DNA from: Plasmodiophora brassicae
Lineage: Eukaryota
NCBI GenBank assembly: GCA_036867785.1
Contig: CP145411.1
Span: 868,001-932,000, forward strand
Direction: 5' to 3'
Length of the DNA: 64,000 bases
The notes under the pieces are model-generated. The model ran no database searches, was not told the origin of the DNA, and worked only from the letters and a program-made list of their open reading frames with translations. The translations under genes were made by a program, and so were the position numbers. Shown one piece after another: positions 54,171-64,000 of the stretch (the first letter of the stretch is position 1; each line of letters begins with the position of its first letter).

Positions 54171-54397
54171 TGTCGCTTCGAACGTCTGTCCGGACCAGAC
54201 GAAGAGTTCGAAGAGCGGGAACGGTATCTGACCAAGCTGCAGCGAGGCGCCTGTGTGAAAAGCGCGAAACCGCCGAGCTGAAACAGAGGGCATATAGCAA
54301 ACAACCAGGTGAGGCATAGCATCTGTTTGAGCTCGGTCAGATACCGTTCCCGCTCTTCGAATTCTTCGTCAGTGCCGGACAGACGTTCGAAGCGACA
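54171..54397. repeat. Long inverted repeat: 68-bp arms (54171-54238 and 54330-54397), 63/68 complementary, 91-nt loop
   Basis: Direct base-by-base comparison of the two arms. Confidence 0.9.
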
Positions 54398-57798: not shown

Positions 57799-58130
57799 TG
57801 TCGAGCAAGGGCAACAACAGTACCTAGTCGAGCATAGTCATCATTTACGTACACGGCCCTATGCCTCTATGAACTATATGCCTGCGAGTGCGCGCGTGCA
57901 AATGCCCGACCTTCAAGATACAGGCGTCTGCCAACGATAACCCGAACACACTCAAATATCAGCTGGCACGGTCGCTCCCAGCAGTATACGGTCGTTCCCA
58001 GCAGTATACGGTCGCAGTGGGGTTATCCTTCGAATACGTCCCTCCCGCAAAACGGCCAGGGGCGCGTTTTGTGAGTGGTTGGTGCGGGAGGCGCGGTTGT
58101 CCAGATCGCCAGTCCGTCGTCCTGTCAGAA

Positions 58131-58659
58131 ATGCGGGCGTCACCAGCACGACGGAGGCAACACCAGCCCGTGTACGTCGTCGATGACGACGACGACGACG
58201 ACGACGACGACGATCTTGAGGTGGTGATCATTGAGGACACGAGGAGTCCGAGGAGGCGTAGGCAGACGTCGTCGTCGAGCGCGTCGTCGGCGTCTCGGCC
58301 GTCGCGACGGAAGAGGTCGAAGGTCAGGGCGGCGACGATCGACCTGACCGTCGAATCAGATGAAGACGGGACCAAACCGAAAGCAAACCATGTAAATGGC
58401 CTTGCTGACGGCGTCAGCGATCAAATCCTTAGACAACTGTCGTGCCCGATATGTTTGGATCCAATCAAGGAACTCTCCAGTTCCACCTGCGGCCACGTCG
58501 TAAGCTCATTACGGTCGATGCATGGGTCATTATTCTGACTGCTCGCTGTTGCTCCAGTTCTGCCACACCTGCATACGGGAAGCGGTCCGCATTCACCATC
58601 GGTGTCCTTCCTGCCAACGGAAGCTCAATCTACGTGACATCCATAGAATCTACTTGTAA
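58131..58659 (+). CDS. RNF4-like RING E3 with SUMO-interacting motifs, two exons
   Basis: SIM-like VYVVDDD, LEVVIIED, TIDLT; RING CPICL...TCGHV/FCHTCI...CPSC...IHRIYL*. Confidence 0.8.
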
Positions 58660-58959
58660 TTGTAAATTTAATCGATATCGCAAATCTCGATATGCTCAGT
58701 ACCGCTGCTGTCGAGAACCTCGACCCGCCAACACGTGTCAATCCTGACGTCTAGTCCGGCGATGGAATCATGTTTCGTTGCGGAATGCAGCATGAGCGGA
58801 CCCGATCGGTTGATTGTATCCCATCCCCGGCCTGTCAGGACCGGCTGTCGATCAAATGATAACATTTGCCTGGTCTACGGGGAGACTCTGAACGGGACCA
58901 TATTGTGCCAGCTGCATTGTCGTGAGGAGGGAACGAATGGTACTCCCAGGGATTCGGAC

Positions 58960-59139
58960 TGATTCAAGCAGTTCGAAGCGCTTAGGAAAGTGAAAGTCCC
59001 CAGTGTATCTAACGTGGGGGAAGCCGACGTCCCCATGACGTCGCACACACAGTGGCACGGTCGCCACTGTGCACCAGTTGCGTCACGTCGTCGTGACTCA
59101 TGGGTCGGCCACTGTCGCTAGCCTTCCCATTATGAATCA
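58960..59139 (-). repeat. 3' LTR (180 bp)
   Basis: Identical to 63511-63690; terminal inverted repeats TGATTCA...TGAATCA. Confidence 0.95.
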
Positions 59140-59145
59140 GCCGCC

Positions 59146-59748
59146 CTAAGGCGCCAGCGACAGGTCCACCCGACCCATCCCGGCCGCCCTCTTCATGACC
59201 TCCACAGGTTCACGAGTGGTCGGCTTGGTGAGCGCGTCCGCCGGATTGTTCTTTGACGCCACGCGCTCGAACCGGAGCAGTCCCTCCTGGACGCACTCTC
59301 GCACATAGTGCCATTTCACCCGAATGTGCTTGTTCCGGTCCGTGACCCCGAGCGTCTTCACCATCTGCTCGGCAGCCGTGTTGTCCTCCAGCACAATCGA
59401 CGGGTCCGTCAGAGTGAACCCGATGTCGGTGAGGAGCATCCGGACCCACACTACTTCACGCGCCAGCTCGCTGGCCGCCACGTACTCCGCGTGCGCTGAG
59501 GAGGTCGCCACCAGGCTTTGCTGCTTCGATCGCCAGCTCACAGCTGCGTCCATCAGCGTGACGATGAATCCCGTGACCGACTTGGATGTGTCCGGGTCCA
59601 TCGCAAAGTCCGAGTCGACCGCCGCCCGGGGCTCCGACTCCTTCACGTTGTCTTTGTTCAGTGCCATCGGGTCGAATTCAGTCGCCGGTGTCTTGCTCTT
59701 CGCGTAGATGATGCCGACATCCGTGTTGTTCTGGACATATCGCAGCAC
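59146..59748 (-). pseudogene. Copia RT-end/RNase H segment, detached from RT
   Basis: VLRYVQNNTDVGIIY, VDSDFA...KSVTG, SWRSKQQSLVATSSAHAEY, EDNTAA, KHIRVKWHYVRE, NPADALTK. Confidence 0.9.
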
Positions 59749-60109
59749 GTCCCACAAGGCGCACTTCGAGGAGCTGGACTTCATCGCCGACAAGGACCGG
59801 CCGACGATCGGCGGCATCGGCCCGCAGCGAATCAAGGTCCATGCCAGGGGCAACGTCCGCCTCAAGCTGGCTAACGGCAAGTCGATCACGCTGACAAACG
59901 TCGCGTACGCGCCAGATGCATCCGCGAACATCTTCGCGGTGCGTTCGGCACTCCTGCAGCTCGGCAAGGACGGCAAGACGGGCGCGGAGCACCATGAGCA
60001 GACGCGCTCAGCCCGGCTCCTGGACGGGGCCGGAAGGACGATCGTGACCAGTACGGTCCGCAAGGGCCTGTACTACCTGGATCTGCACAAGGTCCAGGAT
60101 TTCGAGTAG
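59748..60109 (+). pseudogene. Copia protease, C-terminal part (catalytic DSG motif missing)
   Basis: TSHKAHFEEL...IGGIG...GNVRL...LTNVAYAP...NIFAV...GLYYLD, ending at TAG 60107-60109. Confidence 0.8.
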
Positions 60110-60133
60110 CGGGGGTGGCGCTGGCCGCCCCCG
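60097..60133 (+). promoter_or_regulatory. Candidate programmed -1 ribosomal frameshift signal
   Basis: G_GAT_TTC at 60097-60103 in the protease frame; 6-nt spacer; stem CGGGGGTGGC-gctg-GCCGCCCCCG; the -1 frame is the IN-RT ORF. Confidence 0.7.
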
Positions 60134-62670
60134 ATCACGATCATCCAAACCAGCCAGAAAACAAGAGCCCGAGCAAGGAGGAGCCGGCCGAGAAGAAGGA
60201 AACGCGCAAGCCCGCGGACGTAAAGCGCGACAGAACGATATCATTGGCGGAGGCGCACGCGAGGTGCGGCCACCTGTCCACGATCACGATCAGAAAGGCA
60301 GTCAAGAACGGGGCAATCACCGGTCTCAACATCGACGAGGCCGACCTGGCGAGCGACGAGGTGCCCAGGTGCAAGGTGTGCATCGAGGCCAACCTCAACC
60401 GAACGGCGATCCCGCGGAGACGGACACGGACGGTGCTCTCGAAGCTGCAGATCGTCGGGGCGGACCTGCAGACGTTCGACACCAGGTCGCATGACGGAAA
60501 GACGTACATGGCGTGCTACGTTGACCACGCGACTGGTGTCGGTGCCACGGTCAACCTGGCAAATAAGGGTGACCAGGAGCAAGTCGTCATGGACGTGCTG
60601 ACCCGGCTCGAGGTCATGGGCGGCACACGCGTCGACACGTTCCGCGCCGACCAGGGCGGCGAGTTCACCTCGACGCGCCTGGCGAAGCTGCTGCGCGAGC
60701 GGGGAATCGCACAGGAGTTCAGCGACACGGACCGCCCGCACCAGAACGGTCTCGCGGAGACGTTCGGTGGCAAGATTGTCAAGATGATGCGCGCAGCTCG
60801 TGTCCAGTCAGGCGTCCCGCGCAAGTACTGGACCGAGAACGGGCGGCATCAGACGTGGGTAGCCAACCGCGTGCCGCTCCAACGACACGGCCACCGGACG
60901 ACGCCAATCGAGGAACTGACGGGGGAACAAGCAGACCTGTCGAGGGCGATGCCATTCGGTTGCGAGGCGTGGGTCAGGATCCGGCGGCAAAAGAAGTGCA
61001 AGCTGGACGCCAGGGCCGAGCGCGCGGTCCACATGGGGGTGTGCATCGACAAGAAGGCGTACCGGCTGCTGCTGTGGCACAGCCGCAAGATGATCGAGTC
61101 TTCGGACGTGGTCTTCTTCCCCAACGAATTCCCGTTCAAGGATGACAGCGGCTCCCGCGGAGAGGAGACCCGCAAGCGCCAAGAGACGGCGCAAGCCCAG
61201 CTGCAAGGAGGCGGCGATGGCGGTCAAGACGATCGTCATGGGCAAGAAGACGACGGCGGTCGGGACGATCGCGTCGCACGACAAGACGACGGCGATCGAG
61301 AAGGTCGCGTCGGTCAACAACAGGGCGGCGGCCAGGATGGCCGCGCCATTCAGCGAGGCGGCGGCGGGGACGACCGTGCCAGGGAACTCGCAGGTGCCGG
61401 TGAAGACCGGCATGACGGACGCGATGAGCAAGCAGCTCAGGGCGGCGGGGATCGAGGACCTGCTGCTCAAGGCGTCCCTGAACCGAGGCGGTCGACGCGC
61501 ATCAGAGGAGCGCCCGCTCGGTTTGCCGACGTGGACTACGACGGCGAAGCGCGGCGCCAGAGGGCGGCCAGCGCCAGGGCGGCAGCAGGGGCTGCCGACA
61601 ACGTCGACCAGGCGGCAGCAGCAGATGCTGTCGACCACGACAACGAGGCCAACGACGACCCGGACAACGAGGACCAGGTCAACCAGGACGAGGCGCTCGA
61701 GAACGAGGACAGCTACCTGGAGGAGGAGGACGCTGGCAACGCGTTCCTCACTGAGTACGAGGCCGAGAACGGGCCTGACCGGGACAAGTACCTGGCGGCG
61801 CAGGTCGAGGAGATGCAGTCGCTGAAGGAAGCGGGCACGTATGAGATCGTGGACCGCCCGACCGACGCTCAAGTGCTGCCAACAATGTTCGTGCACACGA
61901 CGAAGCGCGACGAGGACGGGGAGATCACGCGCCACAAGGCCCGCTTCTGCGTCAAGGGATGCTGCGACAAGTTCAAGGGCCAGAAGGAGACGTACTCGCC
62001 GACGCTCCGGTATGCGACGTTGCGCATCATGGTGGCGCTGGCGGCCATGCTGGGCGTGGTCATCCACCAGCTGGACGTTAAGACGGCGTTCCTGAATGGA
62101 GACCTGCCGTACCCGATCTACTGTGAACAGCCGAAGAACTTCGTGGTCGGAGGACGCGGCAAGGTGATGAAGCTCCTGAAGGCGCTGTACGGCCTGGTCG
62201 AGGCGCCGAAGCTCTGGTACGATAAGCTCGTATCAGTTCTGTTCGAAATCGGCTTCACAAGGGTGACCGGCGACCCGTGCCTGTTCGTTATGTTCACGAC
62301 GAAGGACGGCCGCAGACAGATCACGATCCTCGGGGTGTTCGTGGACGACTTTATGATGTTTGGCACGGATCCCGACGTCATCGAGTACGTCAAGGCAGCG
62401 TTGGGCAAGAAGTTCAAGATGAAGGACCTCGGCATCGCGAGATGGATCCTGGGGATGCGCATCAAGCAGGAGGCAACGCGCATCACGATCGACCAACAGC
62501 AGTACGCCAAGGAGGTGGTCGCGCGGTTCCAGACCGACATCGACGAGGCAGCCGCCGGGCGCCGCTTGCGCGCGCCGGCCACGGCTCTGCCTGTCGGGCA
62601 GATTATGCCCCGGCGAACCGACGGTGTTCCGCACCAGCATGAGCGGTACCGCGAGGGCGTTGGTTGCCTG
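60103..62670 (+). CDS. Copia integrase and reverse transcriptase (inverted block, RT C-terminus truncated)
   Basis: HARCGH...CKVC, RADQGGEF, QNGLAE, KLDARAE, HKARFCVKG, HQLDVKTAFLNG, LLKALYGL, FVDDF, MKDLG, YREGVGCL. Confidence 0.9.
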
Positions 62671-63489
62671 GCGCATCGCTCCCCGCTTGTACTGAGCGAG
62701 CACTTCTGCGCGGACCTTGCTTTGCGTCAGCTCTCCGATGGGACCGCGCAGCATCGCGTTGACTAAGTCCTTGTACTCGGTGTATGGCAGCGAGATAAGG
62801 ACCTTCGTCGCCATGTCCGACTCAGTCTTCGTCCGATTCGGATCCGCCCGGGCCAGGTTGATGCCCAGGTCGCGCATCGCCGTCAGGTGCGCCTTGGTCT
62901 CCGTGAGGTCGGCGCCCGCCTTAAGCTTTGTTGTTGACAGAAGAATGTCGAACATCGCCAGGTCCGTGCCCGTTTGGCCGGAATACTCCGTCTGGATGGC
63001 GCTCCACGCCAGGTCCGGACGGTCGTCGGGTATGTCGAGTATCAAGGGAAGTTCGTCTTCATGCACGTTCTTCTTGATAGCGTACATTGCGTGGAGCCTC
63101 TCTTGCTCCGACGCCGGCTCTTCGTTGTGCCCGCGCGTCGCGGGCTCCACGGCCTTTTGCAGGCCCGACTTCTTGAGCATCGTCGTCATCGACGACGCCC
63201 AGACCAGGTAATTGTCCTTGCCCTTCAGCTGGACGGAGATCTTGATGCCGGACTCCTTCAGGCCCGTCAGCCTTTCCTTCTGCGCAGCTTCCAGCCGCGC
63301 CAGACGATCCTTGAGCGCCGCGTTCTCGCGCTGGCCGGTCCCGCTCCCGGCCGCCGCTGCTTGCAGACGTTCAACCTCCGCCTCCAGCCGATCCTGCTGC
63401 CGCTGGGCCTCGGACAGCGCAGCGCTTATCTGGGCGATCACGGCCTCTGCTTGGGCCAGGTCGGCTGGGATGCTTGGGATCGTCGCCAT
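62650..63489 (-). CDS. Copia Gag (capsid/UBN2-like), zinc knuckle absent
   Basis: LKGKDNYLVWASSM...KVLISLPYTEY...VRAEVL; the ATG lies right after the PBS; the ORF reads on into antisense RT to 62233. Confidence 0.85.
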
Positions 63490-63490
63490 C

Positions 63491-63510
63491 AGAGAGTGGG
63501 ACTCTTAATC
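63491..63510 (-). promoter_or_regulatory. Primer-binding site complementary to the anticodon arm of tRNA-Lys(CUU)
   Basis: Plus strand GTGGGACTCTTAATC abuts the LTR and resembles the tRNA-Lys(CTT) anticodon stem-loop GACT-CTT-AATC. Confidence 0.7.
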
Positions 63511-63690
63511 TGATTCAAGCAGTTCGAAGCGCTTAGGAAAGTGAAAGTCCCCAGTGTATCTAACGTGGGGGAAGCCGACGTCCCCATGACGTCGCACACA
63601 CAGTGGCACGGTCGCCACTGTGCACCAGTTGCGTCACGTCGTCGTGACTCATGGGTCGGCCACTGTCGCTAGCCTTCCCATTATGAATCA
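63511..63690 (-). repeat. 5' LTR (180 bp)
   Basis: Identical to 58960-59139; followed on the minus strand by the PBS and the gag ATG. Confidence 0.95.
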
Positions 63691-64000
63691 CGGACACGCC
63701 ACAATCACCTGTAAACTGGACGCACGACGTTTGCCCGCGAACCATGGACTGGGTGCTGGCGAACGTCGTCCATGTCAGTAAATCCAAATGTGGGCGCGGT
63801 CCCACTTCCCCGAATGCATGTGGACATGTTCTGCAGGGTGCTCATCGTTGCTGCGAAGTGCGGTCTGCTCAAGAACAACTACAGGAGAGTATCGTAATAA
63901 ACACCAGCGACGAACGAAAGTCATTACCGACGAAAGCGTCATGCAACGACAGGATCGGTGGACTCGTCGGCTTCGGCAATCTCTGACGATATCTGACATG

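Follow-up and report, generated by a model that had tools for sequence, protein, structure and literature searches.

The window analysed here is a stretch of 64,000 nucleotides of the Plasmodiophora brassicae genome (assembly GCA_036867785.1, contig CP145411.1, positions 868,001 to 932,000 of the forward strand). One copy of an LTR retrotransposon lies near its end, oriented on the minus strand and carrying an inverted internal segment. The features of this copy are listed below in window coordinates.

58955..58959, no strand: target-site duplication (TSD) of 5 bp, partner at 63691-63695
58960..59139, minus: 3' LTR, identical to the 5' LTR
59146..59750, minus: C-terminal part of pol (RNase H region), in the original orientation
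59751..62677, plus: internal inversion of 2,927 nt, private to the window copy by BLAST against the 8 other copies
59751..60109, plus: C-terminal part of the protease and end of the Gag-PR ORF (Pfam Pol_BBD; the catalytic Asp is missing here)
60097..60103, plus: slippery heptamer G_GAT_TTC, in phase, with Asp in the P site and Phe in the A site
60103..62677, plus: integrase-RT frame (-1), with rve, SH3_retrovirus and RVT_2
60104..60109, plus: 6-nt spacer GAGTAG, one sense codon and the TAG stop of the Gag-PR frame
60110..60133, plus: candidate stimulatory hairpin, 10 bp with a 4-nt loop, -23 kcal/mol
62675..63489, minus: N-terminal part of gag with its ATG at 63489, in the original orientation (Retrotran_gag_2)
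63489..63510, minus: primer-binding site, able to pair at 21/22 nt with the 5' half of tRNA-Lys(CUU) as far as the anticodon stem
63511..63690, minus: 5' LTR, 180 nt, TG...CA

At the breakpoints of the inversion, 296 nt are missing on one side, which removes the zinc knuckle and the catalytic Asp of the protease, and 96 nt on the other. The first-pass annotation had not noted this rearrangement. The window copy is dead, since the inversion and the deletions prevent it from expressing Gag-PR, and the frameshift claim made below therefore applies to the family and not to the window copy.

Nine copies of the family are present in the host genome. Seven are 5,126 nt long and retain two uninterrupted ORFs between identical LTRs; one of the remaining two has a deletion and the other is the window copy. 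Identical LTRs of 180 nt flank all nine copies, and a 5-bp TSD is found at seven. The family belongs to the Ty1/Copia LTR retrotransposons and, to judge from the identity of the LTRs, was amplified in a recent burst. Two full-length copies, L015 (G000:C6) and L016 (G000:C2), are without a matching 5-bp TSD, possibly as a result of recombination between copies. Older remnants in the host, at ~90% (C5) and ~36% (C11), do not include the PR/IN junction; these loci, L080 (G000:C5) and L079 (G000:C11), retain only gag and contain fold-back inversions, so that internal inversions are seen in three members of the lineage, the window copy included.

ORF1 encodes Gag (with a CCHC motif) and the protease in 489 aa, and ORF2 encodes IN-RT-RH in 1,126 codons from stop to stop. 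The domains detected are Retrotran_gag_2, zf-CCHC and Pol_BBD, and rve, SH3_retrovirus and RVT_2; the order PR-IN-RT-RH was read in the un-inverted copies. The structural model of ORF1 matches the Drosophila Copia capsid (8vvw, the best structural match) and retroviral proteases of the retropepsin fold, and the terminal QDFE is positioned after the last strand. A single-sequence model of the protease was poor (pLDDT 52) and was left out of the analysis. No AUG is present upstream of the HHCC motif of ORF2 in the family. The public gene model PBRA_002079 (956 aa) begins at an internal Met and thus misses the zinc finger of the integrase.

The open frame encoding the protease (59708..60109, plus strand) terminates as CAG GAT TTC GAG TAG, with its last base at 60109 by direct reading of the window. 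The open frame for IN-RT (59998..62766) is offset by -1 relative to it. The first-pass annotation had proposed an in-phase G_GAT_TTC followed by IN-RT in the -1 frame, and direct reading confirmed both. It had also described a stem of 10 bp (9 GC, 1 GU) with a 4-nt loop, 6 nt downstream of the heptamer, and this was recovered exactly: the arms 60110-119 and 60124-133 form nine G-C pairs and one G-U pair. The frame that is rich in third-position GC changes from 0 to -1 across the junction, both in the element (0.85 in frame 0 before the junction and 0.88 in frame -1 after it) and in the divergent relative described below. In the IN-RT frame the first His of the HHCC motif is encoded at 60256, and the first in-frame ATG is located at 60508, beyond this motif.

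The hairpin is present in both the MFE and the centroid structures, with pair probabilities of 0.93-1.0 for the stem in a 300-nt context. A fold z of -3.06 was obtained over 60085-60180 (96 nt), and a modest value of -1.66 over 60104-60175 (72 nt), where 14 of 200 shuffles were equally good. The combination of heptamer and stem was then scored with a broad definition of the heptamer and a strict perfect-stem filter (at least 9 bp at a distance of 5-9 nt), which misses bulged stems. Of the 116 slippery-type heptamers on the two strands of the window, a single one passed, namely the site at 60097. The same filter was passed by 4 of 304 heptamers in 20 other host retroelement loci, the best of which gave -10.7 kcal/mol versus -23.0 for the junction hairpin.

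Two other interpretations of the junction were rejected. Readthrough of the stop codon was discarded: it would require an integrase in frame 0, and the integrase lies in frame -1. A pseudoknot is unsupported; a partner for 5 nt of the loop was found downstream in the window, and none in the divergent relative.

All nine host copies have the -1 offset. They are 100% identical to one another over 59800-60500 and therefore amount to a single observation of the junction. An independent DNA sequence was obtained from a scan of one metagenome, in which one locus among 483 pattern matches was confirmed. This metagenomic contig, L039, is 46% identical to the family at the amino acid level. Its junction reads CAG GAT TTT CGT TGA, with the heptamer G_GAT_TTT at the equivalent place, CGT TGA as the spacer, a G-rich stem of ~-23 kcal/mol in the same register, and the integrase in the -1 frame. 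Alignment of the family copies had been proposed as a check for a private indel, and an indel of this kind is refuted at the DNA level by the offset in 9/9 copies and in L039. GAT is a minority codon for Asp (20/121 in the element and 6/20 in L039), and both sequences use it at the junction. Among the 10 pairs of the stem, 7 are unchanged between L039 and the family, one has changed in a compensatory manner (C-G to G-C), one on one side only (U-G to C-G), and one is broken. As the signal was obtained from just two different DNA sequences, with one compensatory pair, the covariation carries no statistical weight, its score being reached by 273 of 500 shuffles.

Further relatives were sought in sequence collections. 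Scans of viral contigs with two alignments and one protein gave none, and a degenerate DNA pattern matched 23 viral loci, 0/23 of which were related by tblastn. No relatives were found in genome contigs, and a search of the Atlas returned generic Copia clusters only. In each of 4 runs, which are guessed to be of RNA origin, one assembled contig spans the junction without a joint or an indel, a result that bears neither on splicing nor on transcription.

At the protein level, two relatives with 45-47% identity end in QDFQ and QDFA at the same column as the QDFE of the family. A profile seeded with three QDFx-ending proteins was used for further searching, and 51 of the best 150 matches reached the end of the protease. 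A QDF or QDFx terminus was found in 23 of 169 proteins, where x is C (10), Q (4), absent (4), A (3) or E (2). A protease tree was constructed from 46 regions from which the last 6 residues had been removed; 3 rows short of the protease end and 2 QDF-stop rows of <90 residues were excluded. One clade (100/98) of 28 rows was obtained, comprising 21 QDF(x)-stop rows, 6 that end nearby with other tails and 1 that runs on. Termination at or near the C-terminus of the protease is thus a property of 27/28 clade members, and 17/18 run-on rows fall outside the clade. The 7/28 clade rows that lack a QDF(x)-stop include P0020, P0057, P0051 and P0053, which show no DF ending. The break falls at the same residue across proteins that are 24-45% identical to those of the family. 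The exception, P0022, continues as QDF-L-LRGGALALL into the integrase, which is the register that a -1 slip on QDFC-stop produces; its continuous frame may stem from a natural fusion, from an error in assembly or from a correction by the gene caller. The Q of QDF is conserved in 26/30 rows, though any codon that ends in G fits the heptamer. Since Q is more conserved than the heptamer alone requires, selection on the protein may contribute to the retention of QDF as the C-terminus of the protease.

The second half of the element was examined in the same way. Matches to ORF2 at E <= 1e-100 comprise 12 proteins, including that of the family itself. Six of the 12 are near-full IN-RT-RH proteins of 43-49% identity that start at the N-terminus of the integrase and have no PR or Gag domain. 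The others are 3 partial matches and 2 fused proteins, the latter only 31-32% identical. A search for longer, fused forms gave 1 distant protein (29%), which is weak evidence. P0018 (ending in QDFC) and P0008 (starting with MLRG) come from contigs of equal size (4,677), as do P0017 (QDFQ) and P0009 (MRG; 15,278). If these equal sizes, the sole basis for the pairing, denote the same contigs, the only codon-compatible out-of-frame overlaps for both pairs are -1.

These data were considered against three other explanations for the split. Splicing could excise the stop and join PR to IN in frame, for example through a 62-nt GT-AG intron at 60092-60153, leaving the unspliced RNA to encode Gag-PR. 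It is a common regulator of Gag excess in Copia elements according to the accessible text of PMC5580714 and PMC11835246, and GT-AG pairs 40-400 nt apart that join the frames number 16 in the family and 3 in L039. By eye, however, the candidate donors GTCCAG, GTAGCG and GTACTA are unlike the donors seen in one neighbouring host gene and the candidate acceptors are purine-rich, and the donor of the 62-nt intron is missing from L039. The known Copia cases encode the enzymes on the unspliced RNA and not on the spliced one. Splicing also leaves the conserved heptamer, spacing and stem unexplained. Immediately downstream of the stop, the -1 frame encodes conserved residues (RG, ALA-like), and P0022 reads across them. 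We consider it very unlikely. Equally unlikely is the separate synthesis of IN-RT-RH by re-initiation after the stop, from a near-cognate start or from an internal transcript. De novo initiation of pol from the Tca2 junction is described for a yeast reporter in the accessible part of PMC2194720, the predicted starts of P0009 and P0168 overlap the stop (NTG-A, which could be AUGA), and L039 has a Met three residues ahead of the first His. In the window family, on the other hand, there is no AUG until 60508, and no AUG is conserved, the PR-IN overlap codon being GTA here and TTG in L039. Separate initiation has no need for a strong hairpin at the stop or for a conserved heptamer upstream of it, and free Pol would presumably require its own route for packaging.

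The offset could also be an inactivating indel in a non-autonomous family, with heptamer and stem present by chance. A single founder mutation could suffice for the host copies, which are identical at the junction, and the D[ST]G triad is missing from the protease in 20/22 clade rows. This reading is nevertheless barely credible and is largely refuted by the junction of L039, the termini of the proteins and the clade, in which the same residue marks the break at 24-45% identity; in addition, both ORFs are open and the codon bias changes frame at the junction. No close helper family was found in the host genome. Other integrases of the host reach 28% identity at most, so help in trans from other host elements appears unlikely, and the recent burst was probably driven by the family itself. 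The other legible Copia-like families of the host have PR and IN in a single frame.

The coding region of this apparently undescribed lineage is split after the protease, the split is conserved, and heptamer, codon, stop and hairpin follow one another in that order. With regard to the criteria for -1 frameshifting, an in-phase heptamer and a stable structure 5-9 nt downstream are present in both DNA sequences, and the -1 offset is conserved between two ORFs that are both needed; the XXX portion of the heptamer is non-canonical, yet the same as that of pea enation mosaic virus 2 (PEMV-2). On this sequence evidence, the Copia lineage very probably produces abundant Gag-PR and rare Gag-PR-IN-RT-RH via -1 ribosomal frameshifting. 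The first-pass annotation had arrived at this expression strategy for one family from the window, and the offset, L039 and the clade now support it as an inference and extend it to a lineage. In the proposed mechanism most ribosomes would terminate after QDFx and release Gag-PR. A minority would be held up by the GC hairpin while tRNA-Asp and tRNA-Phe occupy GAU UUY, and the two tRNAs would re-pair in tandem on GGA UUU, so that translation enters IN-RT-RH. The rare slip would yield the full polyprotein Gag-PR-IN-RT-RH and would set the ratio of capsid to enzymes, while protease and Gag would be produced in equal amounts (1:1), as they are in Rous sarcoma virus. By analogy with PEMV-2, slippage may be aided by the position of the stop at the base of the stem.

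The signal of PEMV-2, an umbravirus, consists of G_GAU_UUU, a stop 3 nt further on and a stem whose base adjoins this stop, and was tested by mutagenesis; conversion of the stop to a sense codon lowered shifting in vitro by 72% (accessible text of PMC4737148 and PMC5009743). The likeness extends to the heptamer, the single codon, the stop and the stem at its foot (PMC4737148, in the part accessible). In PEMV-2, however, the shift gives the RdRp of an RNA virus and uses a large bulged stem-loop, long-range 3' pairing and a 5-nt spacer, whereas the Copia element has a 10-bp hairpin and a 6-nt spacer. The resemblance is confined to the signal and is presumably convergent.

The arrangement of the coding regions is closest to that of Rous sarcoma virus/ASLV, where the protease lies inside the Gag ORF (PMC12789967) and the polymerase is fused on by a -1 shift where gag ends (PMC5009743), as far as the accessible text of these sources goes. 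Rous sarcoma virus is, in contrast, a retrovirus in which RT precedes IN and a pseudoknot stimulates the shift; in the Copia element IN comes first, the stimulator is a simple hairpin and the heptamer is G_GAU_UUY. MMTV and HTLV, in the accessible descriptions, also shift by -1 just ahead of the protease stop at pro-pol, but with two shifts, a separate pro ORF and the retroviral domain order.

Within the Copia elements, the ICTV profile assigns PR to Pol or to one gag-pol ORF (PMC8515867), and the strategies described in the accessible text of PMC2194720, PMC5580714 and PMC5009743 are +1 shifting, a gag stop, single ORFs and splicing. In Ty1, Tca2, EVD/BARE1 and the sireviruses, as far as the accessible accounts go, recoding or splicing likewise sets the excess of Gag over the enzymes; the +1 shift, gag/pol stop or intron is located at or before PR, and the protease is outside the abundant product. 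The short spliced RNA of Drosophila copia, a Hemivirus, encodes Gag and protease, so that its abundant short product is also Gag + PR (accessible part of PMC11835246). Drosophila copia achieves this with one ORF and splicing, and the present family has two ORFs and a -1 signal. No Copia element with a PR/IN frameshift was found in the accessible literature; the accessible text of PMC5445492, PMC12440569, PMC5911963 and the preprint bioRxiv 10.64898/2026.10.14.759018 contains nothing on one. The strategy had been regarded at the outset as undescribed for Copia. Within this literature that holds for the -1 ribosomal shift between PR and IN; it does not hold for the excess of Gag-PR, which is known from copia splicing (PMC11835246) and from the -1 shift of Rous sarcoma virus, judging from the accessible portions of those papers.

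The primer-binding site abuts the LTR and matches neither the 3' end of a tRNA nor tRNA-iMet; the tRNA-Lys(CUU) that it matches is that of the host. Drosophila copia is primed by a tRNA-iMet half. The capsid and a primer site for part of a tRNA are further likenesses to Drosophila copia, and the identity of the tRNA is a difference. Priming by a tRNA segment is a Hemivirus trait, and the site predicted here is a half-tRNA-Lys(CUU) site (21/22 nt) and not one for iMet.

The protease triad differs from D[ST]G, which is typical of Pseudoviridae. The Asp is invariant (18/18 rows), and the triad of the window family is DNA(A). D[ST]G is present in 2/22 clade rows with an aligned Asp versus 15/18 outgroup rows; the other 20/22 clade rows have DNA, DGA, DSA, DCA, DHA or DGG (residues 361-363 of P0001 and the corresponding positions of its relatives). 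The altered triad may weaken an enzyme that would now be made 1:1 with Gag.

The element is a member of the Pseudoviridae by its LTRs, domains and domain order: it has two identical TG...CA LTRs with a TSD, the order PR-IN-RT-RH, and Gag, PR and RT of the Copia type. It departs from the usual layout of the family, which is descriptive and no demarcation rule, in that PR ends the Gag ORF and IN opens a second ORF. It is possible, if not quite probable, that the clade represents a widespread, undescribed genus-level Copia lineage with PR in the abundant capsid ORF, an umbravirus-like -1 gate, a weakened D-N/G/S-A protease and, in the window family, half-tRNA-Lys priming. If so, a lineage of genus rank has converged on the alpharetroviral expression plan.

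The lineage-conserved PR/IN -1 frameshift would add to the Pseudoviridae a strategy not encountered in the accessible literature, convergent with the Gag-PR/Pol plan of alpharetroviruses and with the signal layout of umbraviruses. The junction offers a natural cassette of ~40 nt for studying how a stop at the foot of a stem promotes slippage, and a testable link suggests itself between the dosage of the protease and the loss of the D[ST]G triad. Annotation pipelines would class such elements as broken.

Several other elements were noted in the host genome. Chimeric LTR elements, L028:1173-5746 (G000:C6) and L029 (G000:C12), join a Ty3/Gypsy-type Gag and protease (Retrotrans_gag, Ty3_capsid, RVP_2) to a Copia-type IN-RT-RH (SH3_retrovirus, RVT_2); there are at least 9 similar host rows, 2 of which were inspected. 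Between gag and a -1 pol frame, the chimeric element has a G_GGA_AAC heptamer in phase as well as a hairpin with a bulge. L019, L020 and L023 (G000:C15, C14 and C11) have ORFs of 1131-1309 aa with an integrase-like HHCC region and a common C-terminus, in which none of the scanned RT motifs was found. In the window itself, a 68-nt inverted repeat at 54171-54397, with arms 93% complementary and 91 nt apart, is possibly a MITE. A small RING-finger gene (57873-58660) with SUMO-interacting-like motifs, possibly RNF4/Slx8-like, lies ~300 nt upstream of the retrotransposon copy.
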